Assembly (NCBI GenBank): GCA_964542775.1
Contig: CAZIVV010000010.1
Coordinates: 1-64,000, forward strand
Source of the DNA: an uncultured Desulfomonile sp.
GTDB taxonomy: Bacteria > Desulfobacterota > Desulfomonilia > Desulfomonilales > Desulfomonilaceae
DNA: 64,000 nucleotides
Direction of reading: 5' to 3'
A program made the translations under genes and the position numbers. Below the pieces are notes generated by a model, which searched no databases, was not told where the DNA came from, and saw only the letters and a list, made by a program, of their open reading frames with translations. Below, in pieces: positions 25,524 to 54,914 of the stretch. Numbering within the stretch: the stretch's first letter is position 1; each line of letters opens with the position of its first letter.

Positions 25524-27014
25524 TCATGACTTTTTCTGATCAACATTTTGTTCCTGTTTTGTTGCTTTACCAAGAAATTCGGGTAATTCCAATCCTGCTA
25601 CTTTTGCCAGTTCATGCATTGGCGGAATCACGCCCATGAATCTTCTGCCCAGATCAGACAATCCCCCATCTCCTCCACCGTCCCATACAATCACTTTCTC
25701 CAGTGGCAGATTCTTCACGGCTTCAGCCTGAATTCGAGTGAGTTCAGCAAGTTTCTCAATAATCAACAGGGCCGCGGTGAGTTGAGTATCCGACTGGCAG
25801 GCTTCCACCAGTTCCTTGTAGCCATGAGCCTTTGAGTCAAGCTGTGACTTTACTCCTTCAGCCTCCGCCTGCATTCGGGCAAGGATAGCCTCAGCCTCAC
25901 CCTGCGCCACCAGAACGCTTCTCTGACGCTGAGCTTCGGCCTCCAGAATGGCCTTCTGTTTCTCAGCTTCGGCGAACACAATGACCTCAGCGTTCAGCCG
26001 GGCCTGTTCCCTTTGCGCTCTGGCCTCTTCTGCCCTTCTCTGGGCATCCTGCTCGGCCACTCTGATAGATCCATCGGCCTGAACCAGAGCGACCTGACCC
26101 TTGGCTCTAGCCTCTTCTTCGGCAACCTTGCGAGTGGCCTGGGAATTGGCCACCGATGCGCTTGCCTTGGCCTCGATGTCAACTGCTTCCGCATCAAGCA
26201 TTGATACTTTCTGTCTTCTGTCACGAGAAGCTTCAGCCTCACCGATCATTGCCTCAGCATCCGCTGCCGCAAGAGCTTTTCTTCGATCTCTCTCGGCTTC
26301 AGCCTCTCCTACTGCGGCAGCGGCATTTGCAGCAGCCACAGCCCTTTTCTGGTCACGCTGTCTTTCTGCTACTCCGATAGTTCCGTTCTTTTCCTGCTCG
26401 GCAACATCAACAAGAGCCTGGTTAACCGCTTCCGCCGCCGCTTTTCGACCGAGCGCCTTTATGTAACCGCTATCATCCTCAATATCCTTGATGTTGACAT
26501 TAATCACCGAAAGACCGATTTTCTCCAGCTCGACGGAAAGTGATTCATTGACCTTGGTCATGAATGCCTGACGGTCGCGATTGATTTCTTCTATTCTCAT
26601 CGTTGCCATGACCTGTCGCATCTGTCCCAGTATTACACTCTGAGCTTGAGCCTGAACCTCCTCGACTCCTTGTCCGAGCAATCGGATGGCCGCATTCTGC
26701 ATTATGCCTTCTTCTGTGCTAACGGCGACTGTAACGGTGGTCGGGACGGTTACCCTGATATTCTCTTGAGAGAGAGCATTGTTCAGATCAATTGGGACAA
26801 CAAAAGGTTCAAGTTCCAGCCATGCAAAATCCTGAAATAGTGGCCACACAAATGCCGCTCCTCCGTGAATGCACTTTGCGGCCCCTCTTCCCGTCTTACC
26901 GTAAATTACAAGTATCCGGTTGGCCGGACAGCGCTGATAACGTGAACTCAACGCCCAGATAATCGAAATAAGCAATACTGCCAATACAACACTTATGGTT
27001 ATCGCCGCAGTCAT
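25524..27014 (-). CDS. Flotillin-like SPFH/band-7 domain protein (FloA/YqiK family) with long Ala/Glu-rich coiled coil
   Basis: N-terminal TM helix, SPFH core, and an extended EA-repeat coiled coil (AEAERDRRKALAAADAEAMIGEAEASRDRR...). The start is chosen at MTAAITI, with a GGAGG Shine-Dalgarno 9 nt upstream. Confidence 0.85.
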   Translation of the reverse strand: MTAAITISVVLAVLLISIIWALSSRYQRCPANRILVIYGKTGRGAAKCIHGGAAFVWPLFQDFAWLELEPFVVPIDLNNALSQENIRVTVPTTVTVAVSTEEGIMQNAAIRLLGQGVEEVQAQAQSVILGQMRQVMATMRIEEINRDRQAFMTKVNESLSVELEKIGLSVINVNIKDIEDDSGYIKALGRKAAAEAVNQALVDVAEQEKNGTIGVAERQRDQKRAVAAANAAAAVGEAEAERDRRKALAAADAEAMIGEAEASRDRRQKVSMLDAEAVDIEAKASASVANSQATRKVAEEEARAKGQVALVQADGSIRVAEQDAQRRAEEARAQREQARLNAEVIVFAEAEKQKAILEAEAQRQRSVLVAQGEAEAILARMQAEAEGVKSQLDSKAHGYKELVEACQSDTQLTAALLIIEKLAELTRIQAEAVKNLPLEKVIVWDGGGDGGLSDLGRRFMGVIPPMHELAKVAGLELPEFLGKATKQEQNVDQKKS

Positions 27015-27015
27015 T

Positions 27016-27636
27016 TCAATAATCCTCCGAATCCCACAATTCAATTACCTCGACCGTGTTTTGGTTAACAATGTTGACTACTTTAACTTTTGCCCCCTCC
27101 TTTATCGGAACGCCACTTTTACTGCAGGCGTTGATTACACTCATGACGCCTCTGACAAGCAACCTTACCTTACCCAGCCCGTTAGCCGGAATGTCTATGT
27201 ATACCGTTCCCTCCTCGCCAATTGCCCACGCGGCCGAGATATTTCCCTGTTCCTGCATGCCAAGGAAAAAATGCAGTATTGCCGATACGCAGAGCATTGC
27301 CAGGAAACCCCATAGAAAACTGTATGAAAGAGCTACCAAAACATGGGCGTTATCAGCAAGGTACAGTGAGCCTGACCAACTAAAAATAGTGGCGAATGCG
27401 AGCATGGACCGAACGGAAATCAGCACAAAGGCGCCAGAGCCCAAATCATGAGCCACATCATGAGCAGAAGGATCAGAGTCAGCGTGAGTTTCTGCCGAAC
27501 CAGCATGACCAAAGTCATGAGAATCTACCCCAACTGCCGTCATTACGATCTGCCAGGCGAACAGAAGCGTAAATATGACAGCAGAACACACAAAAACACG
27601 GTTTAGTGTTGAAAGTCCCTCCCACCAAAGTTCCAT
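27016..27636 (-). CDS. NfeD-like membrane protein (YqiJ family), the usual partner of flotillin
   Basis: N-terminal TM helices plus a C-terminal soluble (OB-fold-like) tail. Its stop abuts the flotillin start, giving the classic nfeD-floT operon arrangement. Confidence 0.7.
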   Translation of the reverse strand: MELWWEGLSTLNRVFVCSAVIFTLLFAWQIVMTAVGVDSHDFGHAGSAETHADSDPSAHDVAHDLGSGAFVLISVRSMLAFATIFSWSGSLYLADNAHVLVALSYSFLWGFLAMLCVSAILHFFLGMQEQGNISAAWAIGEEGTVYIDIPANGLGKVRLLVRGVMSVINACSKSGVPIKEGAKVKVVNIVNQNTVEVIELWDSEDY

Positions 27637-27877: not shown

Positions 27878-28348
27878 CTACATGATGAATCTGTCGATGA
27901 AAGATAGAATTGGTTTTGCAAAAAGATACATTATTGAAATAAAAACACCTGTCGAAATCATGATGATCATGAATATCTGCTGCCCCAGTCCAAGTTCTCG
28001 CCAGGCCTTTGGCCCTCCAAAAGCGTCCCAATCAGATGCGTCATAAAATCGTTTAGGCTTTTCCTTGCTTGGGTCAGACTTTTTTAATGTTTTGAACCTG
28101 TGCCCACAGATTGTGCATTCCAGGGGATAGTATCTCATCATGATCGTGCGCCAGCCAAGAGTCATGAAAGTCATGAGATAACTGAAACGCCTACCGTAAC
28201 CGTATTGAACAATGTGTTGGGTTACCTGACCGCATTGCTCACAGTAGCGTTTGATGAAAATAAGCTTACCCAGGAAGAGCACCAGAACCGTCAGCCCAAG
28301 TAGGCCCATGATGATCCACACTACAATTTCAAATGTCTCATATTCCAT
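27878..28348 (-). CDS. Hypothetical membrane protein with zinc-ribbon (CxxC...CxxC)
   Basis: CEQCGQ...CTICGH with a TM helix on each side. No family recognised. Confidence 0.4.
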   Translation of the reverse strand: MEYETFEIVVWIIMGLLGLTVLVLFLGKLIFIKRYCEQCGQVTQHIVQYGYGRRFSYLMTFMTLGWRTIMMRYYPLECTICGHRFKTLKKSDPSKEKPKRFYDASDWDAFGGPKAWRELGLGQQIFMIIMISTGVFISIMYLFAKPILSFIDRFIM

Positions 28349-28568: not shown

Positions 28569-30209
28569 CTACATTTTGAGACGCTCTCTAAGATTGGAGG
28601 CCCTGTTACTGTAAGCCGCGGCTTTCTCAGTCTTGCCAAGGGCTTCCCAGCATCTTGAAAGATTTTCAAGAACAGTCAGGACCAATGGCTCTTCAACCCG
28701 TCCTGTAGATTCCAGACGACTAAGAGCCAATTCAAACCAGCAAATAGCAGTCCTAAAACTGCTCTTGTTGTATTCTTCCTCACCTCTGAGGTTGAGATCC
28801 TCTGGAGGCCATGAGGAATACTGACGTATAATAGATGCGCAGGGATCCTGAGGCGGCACAGTCTGAGTAACTATTTCCGGAGGTTCTATCTCAGTTACGA
28901 CTGGCACAGGCTCACTGATTCCCACAATGGCGATGGGAGGCCAGGGTCGTCTCCACCAAGGCCTTATCCAGGGAGGCCTGGCTCTCCACCAAGGCCACGG
29001 TCTGGCCCATGGAGGTCCCCATCTCCACCACGGGGCGCCCCATCTAGCCAAACCTCGACCCGGGCCGATGATTCGACCTCCCGGACCAACTACCCGAATG
29101 CCTGGTCCTACAATCCTACCCCCCGGTCCAATAATTCTTCCTCCCGGACCGATGATTCGACCTCCCGGACCAACTATTCTGGTTCCTGGACCAATGATAC
29201 GTCCGCCAGGACCTATGATTCTTCCTCCAGGCCCGACTACACGCCCGCCAGGCCCTATGATTCGACCACCGGGACCAACAATTCTGGTTCCTGGACCAAT
29301 GATACGTCCGCCTGGTCCAACAATTCTTCCTCCTGGTCCTACAATCCTGCCCCCCGGACCAACAATTCTGGTTCCCGGGCCAATGACACGTCCACCTGTT
29401 CCGGTTGTGCGCCCACCGCTTATAACCCTACCGCCAGTGATCCTTCCACCACCGGAGCTAATTATTCTTCCACCTCCGATTTGGCCTGTTCCGGTTGTGC
29501 GCCCACCTGTGCTTATGATCCTGCCTCCACCTCCCGATATCACTCTACTTCCACCTGTGCGCACTCCAGTTGTTGTTGTGGCGCCACCCAGGCGTCCACC
29601 GCTGGTGGTCGTTATTCTCCCACCACCTGTTCGAATGCCACCCGTCCTTATGGTTCCGCCTGTTGCTGTCCTCCCACCTGTAGCGCTTATGACTCTGCCA
29701 CTTCCAGTTCGGGAGCCGCCCACAACGACTCTGCCAGAGCCTCCTGAGAAGCCTCCAGTGCGGATGGTATGAGATCCTCCACTACGGCCACTGCCCGTCC
29801 TGATTACTCTTGAGCCACCAGTTCTGACGCCGCCAGTTCGAACGGTAGGGGTTGAACCGACGCGAACGCCACCCGTCCTTATTGCCCTGCCGCTACCCGC
29901 TCTGGATCCGCCAGCGCTGATGACCCGACCACCACCGGCTCTGCCGCTACCGTAACCAATGCTTCGACCGGCGCTGAATCCGGCTTGTCTGCCACCGTGA
30001 CCAAAACTGCGACCGCCTCCTCTTGGGCCATAGTCAGCAAGGGCAGAGGACTTTTCATTTTCCGTCACTGTTCGATTTAACTGTGGCTTCAAATCGGTGG
30101 CCGAGGAATTTGAGTCGGCTACAGTTGGACAGGGACAGAGAATCATTGCAAGGATTATGGCCAAAAGTAAGGCGTATTTAGTATCCCAGAAAACCAAGAA
30201 AGGATTCAT
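28569..30209 (-). CDS. Exported Gly/Arg-rich tandem-repeat protein with a Trp/Arg/Pro-rich segment and a small C-terminal helical domain
   Basis: A signal peptide is followed by about 250 aa of R-T/S-G-G type repeats and then about 15 GPGGRI(I/V) heptads. After these comes WGAPWWRWGPPWARPWPWWRARPPWIRPWWRRPWPP, and the last ~130 aa form an alpha-helical domain. Codon usage and frame are consistent. The plus-strand ORF 28927..29772 is its Pro-rich mirror. Confidence 0.6.
   Translation of the reverse strand: MNPFLVFWDTKYALLLAIILAMILCPCPTVADSNSSATDLKPQLNRTVTENEKSSALADYGPRGGGRSFGHGGRQAGFSAGRSIGYGSGRAGGGRVISAGGSRAGSGRAIRTGGVRVGSTPTVRTGGVRTGGSRVIRTGSGRSGGSHTIRTGGFSGGSGRVVVGGSRTGSGRVISATGGRTATGGTIRTGGIRTGGGRITTTSGGRLGGATTTTGVRTGGSRVISGGGGRIISTGGRTTGTGQIGGGRIISSGGGRITGGRVISGGRTTGTGGRVIGPGTRIVGPGGRIVGPGGRIVGPGGRIIGPGTRIVGPGGRIIGPGGRVVGPGGRIIGPGGRIIGPGTRIVGPGGRIIGPGGRIIGPGGRIVGPGIRVVGPGGRIIGPGRGLARWGAPWWRWGPPWARPWPWWRARPPWIRPWWRRPWPPIAIVGISEPVPVVTEIEPPEIVTQTVPPQDPCASIIRQYSSWPPEDLNLRGEEEYNKSSFRTAICWFELALSRLESTGRVEEPLVLTVLENLSRCWEALGKTEKAAAYSNRASNLRERLKM
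29058..29395. repeat. Tandem array of about 15 imperfect 21-nt repeats encoding the GPGGRI(I/V) heptad
   Basis: Plus-strand unit CC(N)GGNCCNAYNATNCGNCCNCC. Copies differ mainly at wobble positions, so the peptide is conserved while the DNA has diverged. Confidence 0.8.
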
Positions 30210-30367
30210 GACTGCTCCACCTCCAGGTCACCGGAAAGCGCAAATGAATGTCAAACGATCGTAAAACTCTCCTGTGACCGAATAAATCTGACCAGGAATC
30301 TGAATGGAACGCCTACTGTCATGTGTGCAGCAACTGTGATCTGTAGACAGTTGGAACGACTTTTGTC

Positions 30368-31600
30368 CTATTGCTTTGACGGCGTTGGCTTTGCAGACTT
30401 TTGGCCCCCTGCTTTCTTAAGTTGTTCCAGGGTCTTGCTGTCTCCAGTGACTCCTGCCAGTAGCAACGCTGTGGCGCCGTTATTTGCCTTGATGTTGACA
30501 TCTGCGCCTTTTTCGAGAAGGAGTTTAACCACTTCTTCATTGTCAGGAAGAAAAGAAGCGTACATGAGAGCCGTTGCTCCTGTCCGCGTCTTTGCGTTTA
30601 CTTGGGCGCCTTTTTCAAGCAGCAACTTTACCAGCTCAAGATTACCGTCACCGGCAGCTACTATGAGTGGTGTAATCCCATCTTCATTTGCTTCATCAAT
30701 TTTTGCGCCTTTATCCAGAAGCAGTCTGACAGTTTCGGGATTTCCGGCGTTTGTGGCAAGTAAAAGAGCCGATGTCTTGTCTGGGGTTTTGGCGTTGATG
30801 TCGGCGCCCTTGGCTACCAGGCTTTCCGCCGCATCCGGTGTTCCACTATTGACTGCAGCCATGAGCGCTGTGATCCCCTTGGGGCCGGCTTTTGCATTAA
30901 CCTCGGCTCCAGCTTCTATCAACCAGTTAACCATTTCCGAATCATCATTGGCTGAAGCTACCATTAGCGGGGTATTACCCTTGTTGTCGGCTTCGTTGAC
31001 TTTTGCTTTGGCTCCAACGAGCAGTTTAGCCATGTCAATGTCGCCAAGCGCGGTAGCGATAAGAAGCGCAGTGAGCCCCTCCCTGGGCTCCTTGTAATTC
31101 ACGTTAGCGCCTTTCTCGCTGAGCGTTTTGGCCACATCCAGATTGCCCTCTGAAACGGCCTGGAGAAGAGCTGTGCGTCCGTCCATGCTTACAGCGTTTA
31201 CATCAGCCTTGTTTTTCAGGAACAGATCAACAAGATCGATGTTGCCGTCATAGGCGGCTATCATTAGTGGTGTTAGGCCATCCTTGGCGCTGGCAAGGTT
31301 GACATCAGCTCCAGCGTTGACAAGAAGTTCGGAAACTTCGAAGTCACCTCCCATGGTCGCAGTTATTAACAGCGTGTCGCCGTGGGAATCCTTGACATTA
31401 ACATTGGCCTTTTTGGCTATCAGTTCCTTTATTTGTGCGAGAGTGGAGGCGTCTGACTGGTTTTCCTGTTCTGGGTAAAGAGACTTGAACTGGGAAATCA
31501 GATTGTCCTCAAGTGTTCCACCCCAACTCGGAAGCTGGAAACCAACTCCGAAAAGTAGGAGAAAACTCATGATCACCGTAACTACTTTGGTAGATGTCAT
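30368..31600 (-). CDS. Exported ankyrin-repeat protein (about 10 ANK repeats)
   Basis: A signal peptide is followed by iterated G-x-TPL(H/M)xAAxxGxxxxVxxLLxxGAdvN units. Confidence 0.85.
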   Translation of the reverse strand: MTSTKVVTVIMSFLLLFGVGFQLPSWGGTLEDNLISQFKSLYPEQENQSDASTLAQIKELIAKKANVNVKDSHGDTLLITATMGGDFEVSELLVNAGADVNLASAKDGLTPLMIAAYDGNIDLVDLFLKNKADVNAVSMDGRTALLQAVSEGNLDVAKTLSEKGANVNYKEPREGLTALLIATALGDIDMAKLLVGAKAKVNEADNKGNTPLMVASANDDSEMVNWLIEAGAEVNAKAGPKGITALMAAVNSGTPDAAESLVAKGADINAKTPDKTSALLLATNAGNPETVRLLLDKGAKIDEANEDGITPLIVAAGDGNLELVKLLLEKGAQVNAKTRTGATALMYASFLPDNEEVVKLLLEKGADVNIKANNGATALLLAGVTGDSKTLEQLKKAGGQKSAKPTPSKQ

Positions 31601-31684: not shown

Positions 31685-32476
31685 CTACTCTACTCTTTTG
31701 AAGCCCCTTGGGAGCGCTTTTTGATCATTGGCTGAACCTTGGCCGCGTGATTCCGGTAACTGAGGCTTTGTCAACCCGGAAGCGCCTCTTATGCCAGCTA
31801 CCTCCTCCAGCGATTGAGATGTTCTGCCACCCTGAGAGGGGCTTGTTGGACCGGAAATTCTTTTTTCCCGAGATGAGCAAGGTGGAGGGTCCTGTCCTGC
31901 TGAGGACTCCCTGCTGTCCCCCTTTATGACCACCCTTCGATTGAGCATGCGTGTCTCTTCGCTGTCGTTGGAGTGAGCAGGTTGTTCAAGACCGTATCCA
32001 CGTGGCACAAGCTTATCCTTGTCCACACCCAGATTGGTGAGGTGGTCTATCACTGCGTTTGAACGTGACCACGATAATTTGCAGTTGAATTCGGCGCTGC
32101 CTATATTGCAGGTGTGCCCATCAACAAAAAATTTTTTGATTTTAGAGAGTTCCGGATGACTTTCAGCCTCTTTCAGGGCTTGGGCCAGGCTCTTGAGGTT
32201 AGGCATGGATTCAGATTTAAGGGTTGACTGACCAAAATGAAATAGCATCGTGTCACTAGTGTAGGTTACCTGGCCCTCGTTTTTTAGCTGCTCTATTATA
32301 ACATCCTTGGGTATAAGTTTAGGTCCACTTTTCGGAATTGGCGCTAATTCCTCGGCTGCAGCCTTTTGTCTCTGAAAATCCTCCCATGTGTCGTCTGCGC
32401 CGACTCCAACCGGCATGAGTATTGAAATCGTCAGGATGAGCAATATTCTTAACATGATCACCTCCCGTAAGTTCAC
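31685..32476 (-). CDS. OmpA-family (OmpA/MotB C-terminal domain) envelope protein
   Basis: A signal peptide and then a C-terminal OmpA-like peptidoglycan-binding module (FHFGQSTL...VDGHTCNIGSAEFNCKLSWSRSNAVIDHL...NRRVVI). An S/G/P-rich tail follows. Confidence 0.8.
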   Translation of the reverse strand: MNLREVIMLRILLILTISILMPVGVGADDTWEDFQRQKAAAEELAPIPKSGPKLIPKDVIIEQLKNEGQVTYTSDTMLFHFGQSTLKSESMPNLKSLAQALKEAESHPELSKIKKFFVDGHTCNIGSAEFNCKLSWSRSNAVIDHLTNLGVDKDKLVPRGYGLEQPAHSNDSEETRMLNRRVVIKGDSRESSAGQDPPPCSSREKRISGPTSPSQGGRTSQSLEEVAGIRGASGLTKPQLPESRGQGSANDQKALPRGFKRVE

Positions 32477-32515: not shown

Positions 32516-33829
32516 CTATTTTGAAGGTTGAGTCTTTTTAATGTCCTCCTTTTTAGCAGGTTTTGCTGACTTATCGCTTTTGTCGTTGTTGATGAGGCTA
32601 GAATTGTTACCTGGATTTGTCATCCGGCCCATGAAAAGTATGATTCCACTGACATTGTCCTTGATAAAGAAAATAAAAGGTCTGTCTACCTTGAATGAAG
32701 TAACCTCGGGCGCCTTTGCCGAGAGTGAATCTGAAACATGACTTGCAGTAGTGGATGACGCTTGTGTTCCTTCCTCGTTAACCTCAACACGGACATTCTG
32801 AATGACAGATGAAATGTAAAGACCGTTAATTGAAGCCGGAGCAATTCCTGTGAAATCAGCCAGGCCCGGGTCGAAGGCATCTCGCATTCCCATAGAAACG
32901 AGGGGCTTGGACAATTCGGTTGATTGTTGAAGCTCAAACTTCGGAAAATGTAAAAGGACTCGGGTCAATTTCAACTGATCTTTCCAGGCCCTCAGATTCG
33001 TGGTGGACAGTTCGTCTTCGATTACTTTGATTCCATCCGGGTTATCAGGAAGCAAGACGCACATTGACAGTTCATTCCCAACGTAAGGAATCTCGATTCC
33101 CTGACAGACACTGTTCCTGAAGTGTCTGAAGTCAGCAGTTGTTTCCATCATGCTGGTTTCTATAGATCTTTTTTGGGTTATAAAAAATGGGGCTTTTTCC
33201 GTGAGGCTAGTGTCAAATTTCACGGCCCATTGACCCTTGAAGCTAATGGCGTTCATGATCAGCATCTTGGTGGCAGAGTTTAAGTTATCGGCAGACACTA
33301 TGTCCTTGATCCTGCCTCCTGTTTGTTGAAACACCCAGTCGTTAATAGACCTGGCTGATTCTACCGGTTTAGTGGAAAAATCCAGGGAGTTGGTAGAGAC
33401 CCGAAAATGGTTTTTCAAGAGGTTATGGTATTCCGGTCGAATCTCATATCCAATTTGAGGCCATAGGGAATTGGATATAACGATCTCAGATCCTTGGCTG
33501 TTGAGGCCATCTATTCTGGAACTCATAGAGGAGAATAGCGCTCCGATACTGTTGTCTTCCGCAGGGAACCTTAGTATCTCACTCATCTGTTTGCGAGTTT
33601 GTCCCTTACCCCCTGCCATTGCCATTGCCAGTGAGGCTGAAATACCGTATGGGGAGAAGCAGAGATTTCCTTCCTGATTACCCAGATGTTTGTAAAGATC
33701 CAGAGCGAAATCACTTTGTTGCCGGATTAACATGTCTATTCCGTTTGAGTCTTTGCAACCCACAGAGACACTGGCTAATATGAGGCTTACACTAAACGCC
33801 ACTGTAAATACTTTTAATACTGGTCTCAT
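32516..33829 (-). CDS. Serpin (serine/cysteine protease inhibitor) family lipoprotein
   Basis: Lipobox signal LASVSVGC. The serpin core is present (NLCFSPYGISASLAMAMAGGKGQTRKQM...; hinge VNEEGTQASSTTA; C-terminal FKVDRPFIFFIKD). A Lys-rich C-terminal tail follows. Confidence 0.8.
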   Translation of the reverse strand: MRPVLKVFTVAFSVSLILASVSVGCKDSNGIDMLIRQQSDFALDLYKHLGNQEGNLCFSPYGISASLAMAMAGGKGQTRKQMSEILRFPAEDNSIGALFSSMSSRIDGLNSQGSEIVISNSLWPQIGYEIRPEYHNLLKNHFRVSTNSLDFSTKPVESARSINDWVFQQTGGRIKDIVSADNLNSATKMLIMNAISFKGQWAVKFDTSLTEKAPFFITQKRSIETSMMETTADFRHFRNSVCQGIEIPYVGNELSMCVLLPDNPDGIKVIEDELSTTNLRAWKDQLKLTRVLLHFPKFELQQSTELSKPLVSMGMRDAFDPGLADFTGIAPASINGLYISSVIQNVRVEVNEEGTQASSTTASHVSDSLSAKAPEVTSFKVDRPFIFFIKDNVSGIILFMGRMTNPGNNSSLINNDKSDKSAKPAKKEDIKKTQPSK

Positions 33830-33913: not shown

Positions 33914-35346
33914 TCAATTCCTGAACCTGAACTCCTTGACTATGCCGTTCGGATCCACGAGACACGGTGTTGGGGGATTTGGTATGTGGCGTTTGCGCTT
34001 GTCGTACCAGTCTGCCACGTTTTCTTTTGCCAGATTGAAAGCAGCTTCCAGGTCCTGGCTACCCTGTTTTATAGCCTCAACAAGAAAGTACGTCAGAACA
34101 CCACCCTGCAACTTGGGATGAGAGTATGAAGTCTCATGTTTGAGCGCCGAGGCGATGAATGCCAGGTTGTCATTGTCATAATCGGGAACAGCGCTTTTCT
34201 CAGTGACGGGAAATTCTTCGTCTGCTCCCTCTAGGGCTATGTAATCGGAAATAAGCTCTGGATCAGTAATTTGAAAATGTTTTGCCATTGCTCTACTATG
34301 GCAGGAATCAACGATAAGTATTTTTTTTCTGGCAGGTATCTTATTGATCAGCTTAGTTAATTCTTTCTTGGATAGAAGATGTTTTTTGCCTCTGAACTGC
34401 GGAGTAGCAGCAAGTTTTTGTCCAGGATAGAGGACGAGGAATCCTTCTCCTCTTACGTTACCACCATGTCCGCTGAAGTAGATTATGGCTGTATCTTCAG
34501 GCTGGGTTACTGAAGCAAGCCATTTCAAACCAGAAACACTCCCTGGAAAATCGGCAGCGGCGTCCCGGAGCACTTTCAAATTCGAATTTTCTATCCCTGC
34601 CTTGGCCTGAAATGTCTCGGCTATCCTTACTACAGTATTATCGTGCGGTCTGTCATCCCAGACACCGTGGCCTGAAATTGCCAGGAGATAAGTTTTAGAT
34701 TTCTCAACGATAGGTGGCGCTGGTGGAGGTCCTGAGCCTATTGTAATGTTTAACTGAGCAGTCCCCCAATTGACGTTTTGTCCAACAGTTTCCGCGTTCC
34801 TCTGAAAGCGTATGGCAAGATCTTTAGCGTTTCCACGGTATTCCTTGAATCCAGTTTTCTGGATTTGCTGAAATTCCTGCTCCGAGAGAATCTTGCCTTT
34901 TTCGGATGTGGCATAAGCGATTATTCGCTCAGTTCCACTGGGGCCAGCTATTCTGAACCTGAACTTATCTCCGGTTGCTGGAAAATTGCGTGTTACATTT
35001 GCCTCAATTTTGTTGTCGGATCCCGAGTAATCATTAGGCCAAATCCTTAGAATACGGCCTGATGTGCCCATGTCCATCAGGGTGACATAGCACTCCCTGT
35101 CCGCCGAAAAGCTGAGTTTCAGCTCATCACCTGGATTTAGTGAATCCTTCTCAGTTGACAGAGTTATCCTGATGTTATTCGTGGAACCCGAATTCGTGGG
35201 AAGGATGTTGATATCCTTCCAGTCCTTGGTTCGTGCCAAACCCTGAGAATGAGATGCGTTAGCGCAAAATAGGAGAGTGATGGTAACTATGGCTGCTGAA
35301 GCAATGATTCTGATTAGACGTCCCATCCCGAACCTCCCGTGAAACA
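33914..35346 (-). CDS. Exported DUF4384-like domain + C14 caspase-like (orthocaspase/metacaspase) peptidase
   Basis: N-terminal DUF4384-like beta-domain (ECYVTLMDMGTSGRILRIWPN). The caspase catalytic dyad is in the C-terminal half, with His in YFSGHGG and Cys in LIVDSCHS. The start is at MGRLIRII, with a GGGAGG Shine-Dalgarno upstream. Confidence 0.75.
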
Positions 35347-35489
35347 ATAGAACCCCAACTGAATAATAAAATACCGAAAGCCCGTTATCTCAAAAAGTCA
35401 GCCAACTCATGATTGAGCTTAAGTTAGTAATGAAATCCATTGCTTATACCAGAAAGCTGTTTAATTTGCCTACAGTCCTGCAGCCTGGC

Positions 35490-36614
35490 TTAAGGTTTAA
35501 GAATTACTAACCCGTTCAAGAATTTTTCGACATCTTCCTTGAATTTGGGAAAGGCGCTTTCCGGACAGGAACTAATGAGCTGAACTAGCGCAGTTTTGCC
35601 AACCCACAGGTATCCATTAAAAATGAAGGGCGTTCCGTCGATCTTTCCATTGAGTGTCATGGAGGTCACCGTATAATTATTCGACTTTATCTCCTTTTCC
35701 TCCTTGAGTGTAATGTCGCCAATCATAGCTTTCAGGTACTCAAGAAATGCTTTTTTGGCCATTTCGACTGAAACCTCGCCTGAAACCTGTTGGACGATAA
35801 CAACCACGTCTAGCTCGCCTGAGCCATGGGTGAAAGCAGCTTCTGCCGTGTCGCCTGGAACCGGGGCCGATGTCCATTTGGTGTGGTCATACTTTATTTC
35901 ATAGAGACCATCTTTTCCCTTGAAAACTCCGGGTTCCTCAGGGGGTCTGGTTTCAGTTGTAACTTTAGGTGGCTCGGCAGGAGGCGGAGTCGTGACTGGT
36001 GCGGCCTCGACAATCTTGAAAGAGTATTCCTTTGTGGCCCATTTGCTGTGGTCAATTTTCTGAAAGGCTACTCCTATGTCCTTCATGACAACGGAGGGAT
36101 TCTTCATGCTCAGGAACACCTGACCCTTTTCAGGACCGGTCTCGATCGGCTGCTTGAGCTCTTCCTGTAACGATTGAATTTTGGAAAGCACAGGATCCAG
36201 AGATGCCAGAACCTTGATTCGCTCTGTGCCAACTGGAGGCATTACCCTGTAGGTGAAGTTGCTGCCCAGTGGGGGTATATTATAAATCCTGTCTTTCTCA
36301 ATCCTGTTTTCGACATGCCATTTGTTTGGGAAAAGCACGATCGTTTTTCCGCTGCTCCCGATGTCCAGGAGAGCCACATAACAGTCCTTGTCCGCCTTAA
36401 ACTGAAATACCACGTCCTCTCCAATGCTGTATTCAGCTTTATCGGTCTTTATCTCCAGTTTGATCCCCGGATTCTCATTCTGAATCTGGTTTGAGAGTTT
36501 CAGAAGTTCCTCAGTGCTGTATCCCGCAGCCTCCTGACCGTGGAATGTGAGAGCGACTACGAACATTACGGCGAACAACGCCGATTGAAATAGCTTTTTT
36601 CTCATGGCGGACAC
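35490..36614 (-). CDS. Exported DUF4384-like domain protein (no protease domain)
   Basis: A signal peptide and the same module (DKDCYVALLDIGSSGKTIVLFPNKW) as the flanking caspase fusions. The C-terminal half is unassigned. Confidence 0.6.
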   Translation of the reverse strand: MSAMRKKLFQSALFAVMFVVALTFHGQEAAGYSTEELLKLSNQIQNENPGIKLEIKTDKAEYSIGEDVVFQFKADKDCYVALLDIGSSGKTIVLFPNKWHVENRIEKDRIYNIPPLGSNFTYRVMPPVGTERIKVLASLDPVLSKIQSLQEELKQPIETGPEKGQVFLSMKNPSVVMKDIGVAFQKIDHSKWATKEYSFKIVEAAPVTTPPPAEPPKVTTETRPPEEPGVFKGKDGLYEIKYDHTKWTSAPVPGDTAEAAFTHGSGELDVVVIVQQVSGEVSVEMAKKAFLEYLKAMIGDITLKEEKEIKSNNYTVTSMTLNGKIDGTPFIFNGYLWVGKTALVQLISSCPESAFPKFKEDVEKFLNGLVILKP

Positions 36615-36849: not shown

Positions 36850-39800
36850 TCATGATGTTTCCCCCACAAGGATAAAGCCGCTCCAGAAGAAGGGGTGTTT
36901 ATAGCCTTCGTCTCTAATGTCCTGTCTGGCTTTTTGGAGTGATTCGATTTTTGTCTTGCCCAAGGTTCGATACTTGAAGAAGTTGGCGGCCAGTGTTACT
37001 GCGGATGAAGCCTCGACTTCCCATAATGACATCAGGACAGATTTAGCCCCTGCATATTGGAAGGCGCGTCCCATGCTCACAACTCCCTCTCCCGATTGGG
37101 CCTTCCCAAGTCCGGTCTGACATGCCGTTAGAGCCACTACATCCGCATTCATTTTTAAAGAAAGGATGTCGGACATTTTCAGAAAACCGTCTACGCCGTG
37201 CGGAACCATAGTGAGCGCAAGAAACGGTTCCATGATCCCGGCCGTCTGGTTAGAAACTACTCCATGCGTAGCAAAAACAACGTTGCCGTACCGACTGAGC
37301 CCGGGGGCAACACGAGTGAGAAAGGCTGTTTTGTCGGCTTCAAGTCCTGTTAGGGCCATGCACTTGGATCCGTATATATTTTGCAAACTCTCGGCTAGAT
37401 CTCCCGTTTCGGGAAGACGCCTGAATTTGAGGCTGCCGCTATCCTCTATGGCCTGCATCAGTCTTACGTTGTAATCTTTTTCACTTTGGGCCAATGCGGT
37501 AGGGGTGGCTAACTGGGCTCGTTGGTCGTTCAGATTGAATACTGGGTCAGCTACAACCAGAAGGCTGTCTTTTGGCTTTTCCCTGCCGCGGGTTTTTCTG
37601 ACCAGGGTGAGGGCCGAAAGGGACTGGTAATAGCTAACAGGATACATGTCACCCAGATACGTGACTCCTTCAGGATAATAAGTGAACTGCTCAGGCCAGT
37701 TTTTGCCCTCCAGCTTGCTCCATTTAGCCTGACCTGATGTGACCAACGCTTCAAATGGCAGCAAACATAGGATTCCATCAGGTATTATGATGAGCGGCGT
37801 TCCTTTGGGAACATCTACAAGAACTGCCTGAACCAGTTTACGGTAAAGACTTTTTGCCAGTTCAATGTCGAATTCCCGAAGATTCCTGTTTTCAAATGGC
37901 GCCCTGAATTTTAATACGTCCCTGACAAGATCTTCTGAGTCCCAGCTCTTGAAAAAACTCTCTGCCTCCTTCCTCTCCCGGATAAGCTTGATCATCACTC
38001 CCTGACGTGACACATCAAACATCAACACGCACTCGTCCTGGCTTAATCCGGAATCTTTAATACCCAGGGGGCGGGGATATTTCACTGCGGCGTATGCGGG
38101 ATAATTTTTCCAAAGCCCATCGATGAAGGATATCAGGTTAGCTTCGGCATCCTGGCACTCTCTTGAAAGGATTTCATATTTGACGGACTGACTGTTCCTG
38201 TCGGTCTTTGAAAGGTCTTTTTTGAGAGCAGCCAGCCTATTGAGGAGCAAGTGCTCCTCTTCCATGATTTCCTTCGGGGTTCCCGAGTTTCCGGAAGCCA
38301 CTTTCTCTGACAAATGGTCGGCAAAGGCCCTCGCTTTGGTAACCTCAATCGCCTGTATGCTTTCATCCTGTCGATTGAGTTTCATGCGAACCCTGGTGAG
38401 TCCTTTGGCCGGCTCTATTCGAGAAAAGCCTCCCAACCTTACCTCAAAGAAATTCTTGCGTTCCGAAGGTAAAAGTCCGGATCTTACCTCCTCAAGGAGA
38501 TTCATCGCTTTTTCATAATATTCGTCCGCCTTCTCATAGTTCTCCATGGCTTCATTGGCGGTTGCAAGACCGGTATAGCTTATGAAAAGGCCTTCAGAGT
38601 TTCCCGATTTCTCAAAGGCTCCAACGCTTTTCTCATAATACTTGGCTGCTTCTGGGTAGTCCTTCTTGATGAGAGCCAATCTTGCCTTCGTGGAATCATA
38701 TCCGGACGAGTTTGCTATGGCCTCAGCCTTGGACAGGGCTCCCATATCCATGAAGAGGTTTGCCAGGTTGTTTTCCTCGAATCTGGTTGGTTTACCAATG
38801 GCCCTGTCTATTTCGAGGGACTTTTTAAGGGCTGCCTCAGCCTCGGCGTATCTGCCCATGTCGGTGTATATGGCCCCTATGTTGGAATAATTGAGAGCCT
38901 CGCCAGCCCTGTCACCGATCCTTTTTCTGATTTCGAGTGACCTCTCATAATATTCAATAGCCTGGGAAGGTTGACCTACAGATCTATAAATAAGACCTAT
39001 GTTGGAAAGAACAATGCCCTGTCCCTTGACATCTCCTATGCTCTTTTTTATTTCAAGGGAACGTTCGTAACAATCCAGCGCTTTAGGATAGTGTCCCAGA
39101 GCACGATGGATGATCCCGATGTTATTGAGCGCTTTTGATTGTCCGGAAATATTCTGGATTTTCTTTGACAGCGCTAAAGAGCCTTCCTGACATTCAAGGG
39201 CCTTCTGATACTGGCCTCGAGAAAAGTAAACATTCCCCATTCCTATCAGAGAATTACTTTCTCCCCTCACGATTCCCAACTTTTTGTACGTTTCGAGAGA
39301 TTGTCTGAACTGTTCGAGAGCTTTGGTGTATTGGCCCAGGGAGTAGTAAACATCTCCAATAGCGACCAGATTATCTGCCTCTCCCCGAATGTTGCCAATC
39401 TTCGTGTTTATTTGTTTTGCCTGTTCAAAACATTTTGTTGCTCCGGGGTAGTCTCCAGTGTCATAATATACGCCACCCATGGCGGCCAGACTGATTGCCT
39501 CGCCACGGGTGTCACCTATTCTTCTCCTTGTTTCCAGTGCCTGTTCGTATTTTTTGAGCGCCTCCGGATATTTTCCCAGAGCTTTGTTTATACTTCCTAT
39601 ACTGTGAATTGACTCAGCGTTTCCTCGAAGATCTCCCAGTTTTTCCCTGATTTCAGCCGCAGTGGTGTAATACTTCAGGGCCTTTGTATATTGGGAAAGA
39701 GAATTGTAAATACCACCAATGGATTGATACGATCTTCCTTCACCCCGCTTGTTATTGATCTTTTTCATGATAGCCAGTGACTGTTCCATAAATGACAGGG

Positions 39801-40327
39801 CCTTATCGTATTGCCCGAGGGATTGGTAGACCCCACCGAGGTTGTCCAGCGCAACGGCCTCACCTTGCGGGTTAGATGATGATTTTGTTATTTCCAGGTA
39901 TTTTTCATAATATTCCAGAGCCTGTTTATAGCTGGATTGAGCCTGGTAAACTCTGCCGATACCGTTGGTTGACACTCCTTGACTCCACGTGTCAGCTGCC
40001 TTTTCACTTGAGACAAGGCCTTTTTGGTAAAACTCCAGAGACTTCTGATATTGCCCATGATCAAAGTAAAAATCGGCCATGGTATTGAATGTTCTGGCTT
40101 TTCCCTTTTCGGAACCTGCTTCTTCAAACATTCGCAAAGCATCCTGCAATTCTTTCAGCCCCGTCTGGCGTTCAGAAGAGGAATTGGCCTTTCTCAGCGT
40201 CTGCTGGCCTTGCTTCAATCTGTCGAAGCCCGCCTGTTCCTGCTGGGCTAAGGCGCACGGTAAAACCGCAAAAATTAAAAGAAGAATTGTGGCCAATCTG
40301 AATGTGTGCCAGGCCATCATGACCTCC
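36850..40327 (-). CDS. Exported TPR-repeat + CHAT-domain protease-like protein
   Basis: Signal peptide, then about 16 TPR units (repeated YxxALxxYExALxI motifs), then a C-terminal CHAT domain (LLVVADPVF...VVFATHGVV...ALTACQTGLG, the His/Cys dyad). The start is moved to MAWHTF, with a GGAGG Shine-Dalgarno 5 nt upstream. Confidence 0.85.
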
Positions 40328-40381
40328 GTTTTTCTATACAAGGCTGTCGAGGTTCATGCTTTGTTTGAAAGTAAAATTGCA

Positions 40382-41824
40382 TCACGGCGCTATATGCTTG
40401 AATTTAATGCGGATGACCTTGTCTGCCCCGACCACCTGTATCTGGTTTTCCATGCGTTGAAACAATTTCTCCCTGTTGGGATCCGAAAGCTGTTTAACTT
40501 TGTCAGGAACTGTATAATCCTCGATACCCATGAGGTTGAATTCACGCTCGAGTCCAGCAGAACGCAACTTTGAGTAAAGTTCTTCAAGTCTGGGGTTTCG
40601 CTCTCTGCTTGCGACAAGATATATGGTTTCTTCGCCTACGTTTTTATCCAGCACATACCAGTGCTTTCCCTGCTTGTAAGGTAGCCACTGGGTTTCACCG
40701 GCTTTTATTTCCCCAGAGCCTTCAGTAAGTTTGGGGTTCGGGAACAGACGCCCAACGTTTCCGTTGGAATCCCACCAGACAACATGCACGAAGCAGTCAG
40801 CGTCGGCCTTGAACGCCAGGCCCACTCGTTGCCCCGATTTTAAGGTCGCGTCATTAGCTAGGGGTTTTACCTCTCCATCGTCTTCCTGGGTCACGAACAG
40901 GGCTTCGATATTGAGAGGTTTGTCGTAAACAGGAGCCCTGAATATGGGGGTATTCTCTGCTTTTCCCTTGGCGGTGTATAGCTGGGGGTTCTGTCTGCCC
41001 CTAGTGGCTTCACGGGTCCCTTCATAGACAAAGTCGTATAGATCCTTGACCGTTATCACTCCATCGCCGGTGTTCTTGTAGGCGGCGCCTCTCAGACCTT
41101 TGAGTAAATAATGCGTAAACACGCTATTTCCGAATCGCTTGTCCTCCCAAGACACTTCATCTGGTCGGCTTGAGGCGAACCCGAATCTTCCCTGCAGATT
41201 CTGAAACACTGAGAAAAATATGTCGGCGGCCTTCGCTGTGGATTTGTCTAGAGCTGAACTAAAGCCTCCGGAATGACATGCGTCTGACATGAGAATCAAT
41301 CTGTCAGAATCAATGCCCTTAAAAAGTCCAGAAGTGTTCATTGGCAGGGCAGACCCAAAAAGATTCTCCACATCAGCGTCGTAAGTCAGAAAGTAGAATT
41401 CGTCGGTCCTAACTGGGTCGGATGCGCCATGTCCTGACAGAAATATTATGACGACATCATCCTTGCCAGCAGGTTTCAGATCATCCCTGATAGCTTTGGT
41501 GACATTTTCCCGGGTTGCCTGCTCGTTCACAAAAAGCCTTATGTGAGCCCTTTTGAACATTTTGGACCGCTCTTTTAGGAACACATGAAAATCCTGGGCA
41601 TCCTTCGGAGACAGTACGAGCTGATTCAGTTTTGTGTCGCGGTATTTCCCTATGCCAACAAGGACGGCATATAGCTCGCAATTGGCCAGCGCACCTGGAG
41701 TCGCGCATGCAACCTGTGACGGGAACACGAAGATTATTGCGGCTAGAAGCCACGATATCAATACCATGGTTAATCGCGCATAGATCCGGTCATGGGGGGT
41801 TGACACTGTTCCTGATCGATTCAT
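40382..41824 (-). CDS. Exported C14 caspase-like peptidase + C-terminal DUF4384-like domain
   Basis: p20-like region YAVLVGIGKY, with the catalytic dyad His in IFLSGHGA and Cys in LILMSDACHSGG. The C-terminal DUF4384-like module is DADCFVHVVWWDSNGNVGRLFPNPK. The gene's 5' end sits 4 nt inside the stop of the TPR-OmpA gene. Confidence 0.75.
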   Translation of the reverse strand: MNRSGTVSTPHDRIYARLTMVLISWLLAAIIFVFPSQVACATPGALANCELYAVLVGIGKYRDTKLNQLVLSPKDAQDFHVFLKERSKMFKRAHIRLFVNEQATRENVTKAIRDDLKPAGKDDVVIIFLSGHGASDPVRTDEFYFLTYDADVENLFGSALPMNTSGLFKGIDSDRLILMSDACHSGGFSSALDKSTAKAADIFFSVFQNLQGRFGFASSRPDEVSWEDKRFGNSVFTHYLLKGLRGAAYKNTGDGVITVKDLYDFVYEGTREATRGRQNPQLYTAKGKAENTPIFRAPVYDKPLNIEALFVTQEDDGEVKPLANDATLKSGQRVGLAFKADADCFVHVVWWDSNGNVGRLFPNPKLTEGSGEIKAGETQWLPYKQGKHWYVLDKNVGEETIYLVASRERNPRLEELYSKLRSAGLEREFNLMGIEDYTVPDKVKQLSDPNREKLFQRMENQIQVVGADKVIRIKFKHIAP

Positions 41825-53991: not shown

Positions 53992-54122
53992 TCCAGGGCT
54001 TTGGAGGATGTCTTGTCGGTGTTGAGTTTGATAGCCGGCAGGTCTCGGGAGGCCAAAGCCCTAATCGTTGCGGAACACCTCAGGAAAGAAAGGTAGTTTG
54101 CGCGACTTTCAAGAGAGGAAAC

Positions 54123-54914
54123 ATGTCAGCAATTCGTGGATGTTTTGTTGTTACGGTGTTGGTGGTTTTATTTCCCGTACTTGGCAGCCTGTCTGCTGCC
54201 CTGACTGGAGCAGAGATCATAGAAAAAGCCCAAAAAAAGCAATTAGGCGAATCTTTCAGAGCGTCTCTGGAAATTCAGACTTTTTCAGGAAACCGTAAAA
54301 CCTCCCAACATCAGATGTGGATGATGGGACAGGTGGAAAAAGATTCGACTACTGTTTTCATAGATTTCGTAGAACCCGAGGATTCAAAGGGTGTGAGAAT
54401 TCTTTGCATACTGAGACAGGAAAAGGATCCAGAGGCCTACATGTATCTGCCGGCTACAGGACAGGCTTTTCCAATAGATGTCCGGGATCCGACCACTGAA
54501 ATAGCAGGAACGGGACTCACCATGGCCGATTTTCAGCCCTTAATTCCGGAGAAGGGCGATACAGCGACTTTGTTGAGGGAGGAGAATCTAGACGGTAAGC
54601 CCAGTTACCTGATTCAGATAACAAAAGCAGATTCCGGACAGTCGCGCTATGTCTGGATTGAAAGGGATTCCCTTGATCTGTTAAGGCTGGAAGAAAAAAG
54701 TAAAGATGGGAAAATACTTCGAGAGATGAGGGTCGTCGAATTTTTTGATACCCTCGATGGAAAGCGATACCCGAGAGAAGAGGAAATCGTACTGCCCACA
54801 AAAGATGTAAGAATAAAGATCCGTCAGGAAAACGCCGTCTTTGGAATCACTATTCCTGAGGAACTCACCAATCCAGCGACCTTTGGAAATTTCAAGTGGC
54901 AGGTTCAGTTCTAG
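54123..54914 (+). CDS. Outer-membrane lipoprotein-sorting (LolA-like) protein partnering the MMPL transporter
   Basis: Start set at MSAIRGCFVVTV, a signal peptide. The ~260-aa beta-rich protein follows the MMPL gene directly and overlaps it, a conserved pairing. I assign the family from context and composition, not from a hard motif. Confidence 0.55.
   Translation: MSAIRGCFVVTVLVVLFPVLGSLSAALTGAEIIEKAQKKQLGESFRASLEIQTFSGNRKTSQHQMWMMGQVEKDSTTVFIDFVEPEDSKGVRILCILRQEKDPEAYMYLPATGQAFPIDVRDPTTEIAGTGLTMADFQPLIPEKGDTATLLREENLDGKPSYLIQITKADSGQSRYVWIERDSLDLLRLEEKSKDGKILREMRVVEFFDTLDGKRYPREEEIVLPTKDVRIKIRQENAVFGITIPEELTNPATFGNFKWQVQF

Follow-up and report, generated by a model that had tools for sequence, protein, structure and literature searches.

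A predicted exported arginine-only repeat protein with a C-terminal TPR unit, encoded beside caspase-like and CHAT protease genes in Desulfomonile-like bacteria

The stretch of DNA analysed here, referred to as the window, comprises positions 1 to 64,000 of contig CAZIVV010000010.1 from an uncultured Desulfomonile sp. (assembly GCA_964542775.1). On its minus strand, an open reading frame (ORF) with an ATG start (28569..30209; 546 amino acids (aa) plus stop in the ORF list) encodes what we call the repeat protein: a predicted export signal, a long repetitive region containing Arg without any Lys, Asp or Glu, a Trp-rich patch and a small folded C-terminal unit. Patterns of substitution and open frames in related genomes indicate that this is a real, selected and translated gene. 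It is the last of nine genes in a same-strand block that also encodes homologues of C14 caspases and CHAT proteases as well as a serpin. Tentatively, with a probability of about 40%, we favour a reading in which the repeat protein is a mostly non-globular exported polycation and a client (substrate and/or tethered partner) of its protease block in the periplasm or cell envelope.

An arginine-only repeat protein in a selected reading frame

By composition, the whole protein contains 126 Gly, 67 Arg and 16 Trp, with a net charge of +50 and a pI of 11.9. The 364 aa from Y60 to W423 contain 57 Arg, evenly placed (median spacing 7, largest gap 11), but lack Lys, Asp and Glu entirely. In the 34 other long ORFs of the window, taken as compositional background (R 5.3%, K 5.9%, W 1.0%), Arg and Lys are about equally frequent, so that the bias of the repeat protein is both extreme and Arg-specific; against this background, the chance that 57 of 57 basic residues would be Arg is about 0.47^57. 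The protein and its gene are laid out as follows, all on the minus strand.

30215..30224, minus: Shine-Dalgarno-like GGAGGTGGAG, 5 nt before the ATG, read from the sequence
28569..30209, minus: coding sequence of the predicted exported poly-Arg repeat/TPR protein (ORF list, composition, orthologues and a strain variant with intact frames)
30117..30209, minus: predicted signal peptide, aa 1-31, h-region ALLLAIILAMIL, ending T-V-A then DS (sequence pattern)
30033..30116, minus: acidic/polar spacer, aa 32-59, separating the polycation from the predicted cleavage site; all orthologues have an acidic spacer
29382..30032, minus: irregular Gly/Arg/Thr/Ser repeats, aa 60-276, with GGRxI(S) and (V/I)RTGG units
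29067..29381, minus: 15 in-register tandem heptads GPG[G/T/I]R[I/V][I/V], aa 277-381, with a 21-nt DNA period
29043..29066, minus: junction GPGRGLAR, aa 382-389; (L/M/V)(A/V)ARR at the equivalent site of orthologues (alignment)
28935..29042, minus: Trp/Arg/Pro segment WGAPWWRWGPPWARPWPWWRARPPWIRPWWRRPWPP, aa 390-425, conserved as RGPWGPW(V)RR repeats
28848..28934, minus: linker, aa 426-454, hydrophobic then acidic Pro/Glu/Val/Thr, IAIVGISEPVPVVTEIEPPEIVTQTVPPQ, net charge -4
28572..28847, minus: C-terminal TPR_12/kinesin-light-chain-like unit, aa 455-546 (structure prediction, Foldseek, profile matches, weak Pfam match)

The initial annotation, an exported Gly/Arg repeat protein carrying an indolicidin-like segment and ending in a small helical domain, is partly borne out by this layout: the gene and its architecture stand, and the likeness to indolicidin does not reach beyond composition. 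The minus-strand frame opens with a Sec-type signal pattern, the heptads and the irregular GGRxI and RTGG repeats fill most of the protein, the earlier estimate of about 70 Arg is close to the count, and the Trp/Arg/Pro string had been quoted exactly. The export signal is predicted to be of Sec type and seems cleavable; in orthologues, signal peptides have K/R-rich n-regions and end in A-W-S followed by (D/E)S, again as a sequence pattern. A lipoprotein was considered and rejected since no lipobox precedes the Cys of the h-region, as was a transmembrane anchor in the PIVVPVV stretch, which is too short. The irregular repeats open with YGPRGGG, within a conserved YG(P/R)(R/G)GGG motif, and Tandem Repeats Finder detected periods of 21, 42 and 84 in the heptad DNA.

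Comparison of the heptads with one another supports the reading frame. They are 82% identical as protein and 67% identical as DNA; their differences fall 182, 47 and 499 times on codon positions 1, 2 and 3, and 420 codon differences are synonymous versus 129 non-synonymous, an excess which indicates purifying selection acting on this frame. An ORF of 281 codons on the opposite strand (28927..29772, plus) overlaps the gene, and the two frames have their third positions in common. Synonymous differences predominate less in this ORF (299, versus 163 non-synonymous), and it has neither a start context nor continuity with conserved domains; we therefore rejected it as a gene and consider it an artefact mirroring the Gly/Pro codons of the repeat protein. 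The MIRPPGP and TILPPGP repeats that it would encode resemble the sense-strand RRPPGP repeats of two orthologues, L004 and L009 (L numbers denote genome and metagenome loci, P numbers protein clusters).

The frame is also kept in other genomes, both in orthologues and in a close strain, the two comparisons that the initial annotation had proposed. A metagenome contig (L012, JGI 3300044603) that is 98-99% identical to the window has the frame open through 13 heptads, the Trp segment and the C-terminus, with a single Cys520Ser change. Two diverged orthologues have an unbroken frame running from the signal peptide to the stop, namely P0001 (407 aa, from metagenome-assembled genome (MAG) JAZDKD010000300) and L009 (238-1503, 421 aa). 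At its contig end, L012 differs from the window in heptad order, GPGGRIV-GPGIRVV-GPGGRII being placed upstream of GPGGRVV (L012 1-100 compared with window 29240-29340), which represents either true reshuffling of repeats between strains or a short-read assembly artefact. Exact-sequence look-ups of the repeat protein and of the neighbouring serpin matched no record, and a scan for promoters and terminators around the gene stayed at shuffle level, with the coding strand empty.

The small helical domain anticipated by the initial annotation was clearly recovered by AlphaFold2 (AF2). With the family alignment as input, the predicted local distance difference test (pLDDT) was about 97 over aa 455-546, in which five helices are modelled, and confidence was low elsewhere. 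The 92 aa of this model resemble TPR_12 proteins and would form two TPR hairpins plus a capping helix. Foldseek matched them with probability 1.0 to KLC1/KLC2, LGN and designed CTPR proteins, the best local superpositions having a root-mean-square deviation (rmsd) of 1.0-1.3 Å over 76-77 aa (1.3 Å over 76 aa for KLC); the E-value reached only about 0.07 since the entire 546-aa chain served as the query model. The Pfam scan matched no repeat family and gave TPR_12 (PF13424) at aa 488-542 below its cutoff (18.5 bits versus 30.1; E=0.0023), while several orthologues carry a precomputed PF13424 match. There is also weak similarity between this unit and the TPR array of the neighbouring CHAT protein. 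Unlike in typical TPR_12 proteins, a lone unit here terminates a low-complexity exported protein, and neither its Cys pair nor its invariant C-terminal LRERLKM is a TPR_12 feature. Cys457 and Cys490 are both kept in near members of the family and both missing in the distant P0019, a pattern consistent with a periplasmic disulfide.

A small family with replaced repeat units

A first homology search with the full-length protein drew mostly low-complexity candidates and yielded one true orthologue; a Streptomyces M6-protease match proved spurious, the common part being only a "RIIGPG"-like stretch. The family was defined by a profile of the linker and C-terminal domain. This profile retrieved 13 clusters from a word-indexed database, and an exhaustive search of 1.84 billion cluster representatives gave 353 matches at E<=1e-3, of which about 7 belong to the family (P0011-14, P0016, P0019 and P0022). 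The matches beyond these are TPR_12 proteins of 400-3000 aa, each matched in 3-13 stretches. NCBIfam and PADLOC hold no family for the protein, and neither the family profile nor a DUF4384 neighbour retrieved any PDB sequence. Loci encoding it are labelled uncultured Desulfomonile sp., uncultured delta proteobacterium or "Pseudomonadota bacterium". Among the sequences searched, the family is tiny and limited to Desulfomonile-like MAGs and metagenomes.

Many database entries consist of just the last 90-230 residues of the protein, either because gene callers skip the low-complexity part or because the contigs (L002-L004 and L010) carry frameshifts. Frameshifts on these contigs split neighbouring genes too, so that the fragmented calls point to assembly errors. 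In L006, contig frameshifts break the orthologue into three ORFs.

Once reconstructed, near members share nearly every element around the repeats. They begin with the A-W-S/(D/E)S signal peptide, the acidic spacer and Y(G/S)RGGGG, continue into an Arg-rich low-complexity region, and then show the (L/V)ARR junction, RGPWGPW(V)RR repeats, PIVVPVV, the acidic P/E/V/T linker and a C-terminal signature, DPC...ALCWFELALKRLE...VLENLAKTYEALGK...LRERLKM. The repeat units themselves wholly differ between orthologues and may be Gly-rich, Pro-rich or Thr/Ser-rich. The window protein is built from GGRxI and GPGGRII units, P0001 from SRPxxxPRV and VRTQPxRPTT, L009 from nine 14-mers (VRTQSTRTNTPISN), and L004 from RTPPTSVV and GPLVGPIRRPP. 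In L006 (9061-10080), seven 20-mers (GGRGPGGRGPGGGILVGPGG) stand just ahead of the Trp segment, and their near identity points to a very recent expansion. Across these sequences, Arg recurs roughly every 5-8 residues over a long region (median spacing 5-7) with essentially no Lys; in L009, for instance, 40 Arg are spread over the 232 aa of the Arg-rich region, the largest gap between them being 11, and Lys, Asp and Glu are missing altogether.

Distant members depart further. In L010 and L011 the Trp patch is replaced by His-rich segments, which in L010 are EHKPHxWV repeats. The most distant member, L011 (35-1804; at least 589 aa, 34% identity in the TPR unit), has neither conserved Cys, combines S/P/R-rich (SAPRRSAPSMSRSRP) and G/N/T/R-rich regions, and carries a His cluster (HHHHEHERHHGHEKH), not a Trp patch. 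Given this turnover of repeats and the swap of Trp for His, the constant features are export, evenly placed Arg on a Gly/Pro-rich chain, an aromatic or imidazole patch, the acidic linker and the TPR unit. Selection appears to maintain a regular spacing of guanidinium groups along a flexible chain rich in Gly or Pro, and not a specific repeat sequence.

The protease block and its neighbourhood

The repeat protein gene lies at the end of a compact run of genes with domains assigned by Pfam. The eight genes preceding it in the block and the gene directly downstream, all on the minus strand, are listed below.

41821..42807, minus: exported TPR and OmpA-like protein, first gene of the block
40382..41824, minus: exported C14 caspase homologue with DUF4384, SGHG and DACHSG motifs
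36850..40341, minus: exported TPR (TPR_12 array)-CHAT protease homologue
35490..36614, minus: exported DUF4384 protein
33914..35347, minus: exported DUF4384 and C14 caspase homologue, FSGHG and DSCHS dyad motifs
32516..33829, minus: serpin with lipoprotein-like signal (...SVSVGC), reactive-centre loop EEGTQASSTTASHVSDSLSAKAP, predicted P1 residue Ser
31685..32476, minus: OmpA-like peptidoglycan-binding protein with signal peptide
30368..31600, minus: exported ankyrin-repeat protein, upstream neighbour of the repeat protein gene
27878..28348, minus: zinc-ribbon (CxxC...CxxC) protein, 156 aa, two hydrophobic segments, directly downstream of the repeat protein gene

The protease cluster reported by the initial annotation is therefore present, with two C14 caspase homologues and a TPR-CHAT protein in one same-strand block. 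Both C14 proteins keep their His/Cys dyad motifs (FLSGHG...DACHSG and FSGHG...DSCHS), which match the orthocaspase consensus. All nine block genes, from the TPR-OmpA gene to the repeat protein gene, start with a signal-peptide-like segment; with an export signal on every component, any action of the block would be periplasmic. The ankyrin protein is the sole strongly acidic member (net charge -13, pI 4.8, only 4 Arg), and its gene precedes that of the repeat protein in every locus with enough flank. Because it is acidic, adjoins the +50 protein and was lost together with it in one deletion (see below), we regard it as a lead for a plausible direct partner or chaperone.

Gene order is conserved across loci. 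The succession CHAT, DUF4384, DUF4384-C14, serpin, OmpA, ankyrin and repeat protein occurs in L001, L002, L003 and L004, is partial in L010 and decayed in L007, and linkage to proteases holds in L001-L004, L007 and L010. Block proteins are 34-80% identical to those of the window, ranging from the serpin, the fastest-diverging member (34-47%), to the OmpA-like and ankyrin proteins (60-80%). Upstream of the block, the window encodes at 43791-54914 a second TPR-CHAT protein, a DAGK-like kinase, an 805-aa ORF (48218-50635; no Pfam match), an MMPL protein and a LolA-like protein. In L002 and L004 (11000-20400), the second TPR-CHAT, DAGK, MMPL and LolA-like genes lie downstream instead. Flanking genes can thus switch sides while the block stays intact, which suggests that it was rearranged as a unit. 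On the other side, the zinc-ribbon gene follows the repeat protein gene in L002, L004 and L012, and an unrelated 80-aa membrane protein is encoded there in L006-L008. In the window, the zinc-ribbon gene is followed by genes for an SPFH/Band-7 protein and an overlapping NfeD-like membrane protein, the latter with no Pfam match (25524-27636, minus), a pair not found downstream in the other loci. PADLOC gave no match for the repeat protein and recognised no defined system in the block; neighbours matched only generic caspase, TPR, ankyrin and MotB-like models.

One locus shows the block without a functional repeat protein gene. In L007 (9437-10426; uncultured Desulfomonile MAG CAJBEZ010000098), a deletion that took most of the ankyrin gene and the signal peptide and repeats of the repeat protein has fused a stop-riddled ankyrin remnant to the distal repeats, and the last 15 codons of the repeat protein gene are frameshifted. 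Ten sequences of cluster P0012 have the same frameshifted end. Protease, serpin and OmpA genes of L007 are intact.

Possible roles of the repeat protein

We infer every functional step of the proposed client model. In this model, the TPR unit would dock the repeat protein to a partner, for which the acidic ankyrin protein and the CHAT protein with its TPR_12 array are candidates, while the Arg-only chain and Trp patch would bind anionic envelope components and the membrane interface. The C14 enzymes and/or the CHAT protein would cleave at the regularly spaced Arg, either removing the tether or freeing short cationic fragments, and the serpin would restrain this proteolysis. Cleavage at Arg is proposed since the C14 homologues have metacaspase-type SGHG and DxCHSG motifs and characterised ortho- and metacaspases cut after Arg or Lys, MaOC1 favouring an RR substrate (PMC7475262). 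The dibasic RR sites in the Trp segments of orthologues and the calculated interface preference of the Trp patch, both described below, also fit the model. The 57 Arg do lie in a region of low predicted order, albeit one with many Arg-Pro bonds and heptads that are possibly ordered.

Several observations weigh against this client model. All loci come from one narrow clade, and the conserved adjacency may partly reflect shared ancestry instead of functional coupling. Metacaspase sites do not require Arg over Lys, so the Arg-only rule is an equally good or better sign of guanidinium-specific binding. Many Arg precede Pro, a poor P1' residue for most Arg-specific proteases (10 of 28 in P0001, 8 of 40 in L009 and 4 of 7 in the Trp segment of the window). 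Hinge counting places Ser (window) or Met (L007) at P1 of the serpin, which led us to reject it as an obvious Arg-P1 inhibitor. These last two points weaken the view of the initial annotation that the protein is an ideal substrate for Arg/Lys-specific proteases. The proteases kept in L007 after the loss of the repeat protein also indicate that the block can persist without it, and if the beta-solenoid-like rod predicted for the heptads is real (see below), it would make a poor protease substrate.

A structural polycation, in which proteolysis is irrelevant, is a possible alternative that we nonetheless think unlikely. The protein would serve as a spacer, glue or matrix component of the envelope or surface, with the OmpA-like and ankyrin proteins as its real partners, its Arg ladder binding polyanions (peptidoglycan-associated polymers, lipopolysaccharide, extracellular DNA, polyphosphate or exopolysaccharide) and its Trp patch at the membrane interface. 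The use of 57 Arg and no Lys suits guanidinium binding to phosphate or sulfate better than selection for protease sites, the block holds two OmpA-like peptidoglycan binders, and L007 lost the repeat protein along with the ankyrin gene and kept the proteases; the Arg-Pro bonds and the non-Arg serpin P1 also keep this alternative alive.

A Gly/Pro-rich low-complexity chain with free turnover of its units further recalls periplasm-spanning linkers. The Pro-rich spacer of TonB and domain II of TolA are long, charged, non-globular regions that join an export or anchor signal at the N-terminus to a small binding domain at the C-terminus. The repeat protein is similar in having a long Gly- or Pro-rich region and a small C-terminal domain, but its signal looks cleavable, its charge is Arg-only without an alternating acidic block, and it has neither a TonB or TolA C-terminal domain nor accompanying ExbBD or TolQR genes. 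Other parallels are the Gly/Arg-rich RGG/GAR regions of eukaryotes and the GPGGx repeats of flagelliform silk, in which a GPGG turn is likewise followed by variable residues. The elastomer-like GPGGx motif and the regular beta rod predicted for the heptads speak for a structural role. Compared to RGG/GAR regions, however, the repeat protein contains 1 RGG and 24 GGR, is exported as opposed to nuclear or cytoplasmic, and has no RNA-binding domain or evolutionary relationship. A structural role is made less probable by the cleavable look of the signal peptide, which would leave no membrane anchor, by the absence of surface-polymer secretion or assembly machinery from the block, by the constant placement of the gene in a same-strand block dominated by proteases and their inhibitor, and by a family too rare for a general envelope component.

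Release of peptides was the hypothesis that had drawn attention to this gene. Here, the Arg-specific proteases of the block would free cationic Trp-rich peptides, either of the GPWGPWVRR type or the 36-aa segment, that damage membranes of competitors or of the producer, as a functional analogue of protease-activated gasdermins. The segment in the window has 12 Trp, 11 Pro and 7 Arg in 36 aa (33%, 31% and 19%), and it is the stretch calculated to be most favourable for the membrane interface in the repeat protein, as are its counterparts in each orthologue. Its calculated interfacial free energy, on the scale of Wimley and White 1996, is -11.4 kcal/mol, or -0.32 kcal/mol per residue, equal to that of tritrpticin on this scale and comparable to that of indolicidin. 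Near orthologues keep the segment, which has the RGPWGPW(V)RR form in P0001, P0003, P0013, L006 and L009, with dibasic RR sites every 8-9 residues and the conserved (L/V)ARR junction ahead of it. Orthocaspases prefer basic and dibasic sites (PMC7475262), and proteases together with an inhibitor would suit zymogen-like control.

Indolicidin, tritrpticin and PR-39 are indeed similar to the segment in their dominance of Trp, Arg and Pro, cationic charge and predicted interface affinity per residue, although this likeness is compositional. The repeat protein has no homology to these animal peptides and no cathelin-type prodomain (the Pfam scan returned solely the weak TPR_12 match, and it is repeats that lie upstream of the segment); its Trp stretch is 36-50 aa embedded in a bacterial protein of 400-550 aa, and the consensus of orthologues is the Gly-containing RGPWGPW(V)RR. 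A profile of the segment alone found no match at E<=0.1 among 2443 candidates from 5.8 billion sequences, a result that is uninformative because the query is so short and biased for a database of this size. NCBIfam and PADLOC gave no match for the protein. Moreover, Arg-Pro bonds dominate the window segment, L010 and L011 have His-rich segments in its place, the block contains no exporter, immunity or modification gene, and L007 dispenses with the protein altogether; the scenario also leaves the conserved TPR unit and several hundred residues of Arg-rich chain without a role. On these data, we judge a precursor of this kind distinctly improbable.

A more elaborate version is somewhat more doubtful still. 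It proposes a periplasmic, serpin-controlled caspase/CHAT system with the repeat protein as terminal substrate, whose cleavage at Arg or RR would either deliver membrane-active Trp/Arg peptides into the cell's own envelope, as in gasdermin-like suicide or defence, or yield a clot-like cationic matrix. Bacterial gasdermin systems and type III-E Csx29-Csx30 likewise place a caspase-fold protease beside a dedicated non-enzymatic candidate cleavage target, and the TPR-CHAT architecture is also found in Csx29. In contrast to these cassettes, the repeat protein has no similarity to gasdermin or Csx30 according to Pfam and PADLOC, and the block adds a serpin, OmpA-like proteins and an ankyrin protein but includes no CRISPR component or NLR-type sensor. 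If true, this version would define, for the first time, what exported bacterial caspase homologues naturally act on and to what effect.

The heptads, and perhaps the GGRxI repeats too, might instead fold into a beta-solenoid rod with an Ile/Val core and outward-facing Arg, presenting a rigid binding surface. AF2 applied to aa 262-392 alone predicts a 3-residue strand every 7 residues (mean pLDDT 84, predicted template-modelling score 0.76), and the nearest PDB folds of the isolated heptads are beta-solenoids, including the TibA passenger, pentapeptide-repeat proteins and pectate lyases. These structural matches are poor, however (TM 0.25-0.39, rmsd 8-12 Å), in the full-length model the repeat region has a pLDDT of 30-74 and this stretch one of 34-74, and the Pro- and Thr/Ser-rich repeats at the equivalent position of orthologues cannot adopt such a fold. 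AF2 run on a single sequence is known to predict solenoids too readily when repeats are perfect. Taking this unreliability and the orthologue repeats together, we consider an ordered rod a minor and quite improbable rival. Finally, that the ORF is a chance product, or a decaying low-complexity relic of which only the TPR part functions, is barely credible: gene callers often give its C-terminal portion alone, L007 holds a truncated and frameshifted copy and the exact protein has no database record, yet 217-364 low-complexity codons stay open in three independent lineages, the heptads show their synonymous excess, the sister strain has an intact frame, and fragmented calls sit on contigs whose neighbouring genes are also broken.

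Literature searches on the block domains, on Arg/Gly-rich repeats and on serpin/caspase operons returned no description of the repeat protein or of the block. Its parts are familiar, namely a Sec signal, low-complexity repeats and a TPR unit; what is new is how they are combined, the restriction to Arg and the genomic link to exported caspase and CHAT proteases. For annotation, the family serves as a warning, since gene callers shorten these proteins to their last 90-230 codons and a sizeable antisense artefact overlaps the gene. More broadly, the repeat protein offers a clear case in which selection acts on composition and on the spacing of charges, the repeat sequence having been replaced many times. 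Few natural substrates or outputs have been defined for bacterial orthocaspases and CHAT proteases, least of all for those bearing export signals, and this family pairs an unusual candidate client with exported proteases and an inhibitor in a compact, conserved block.

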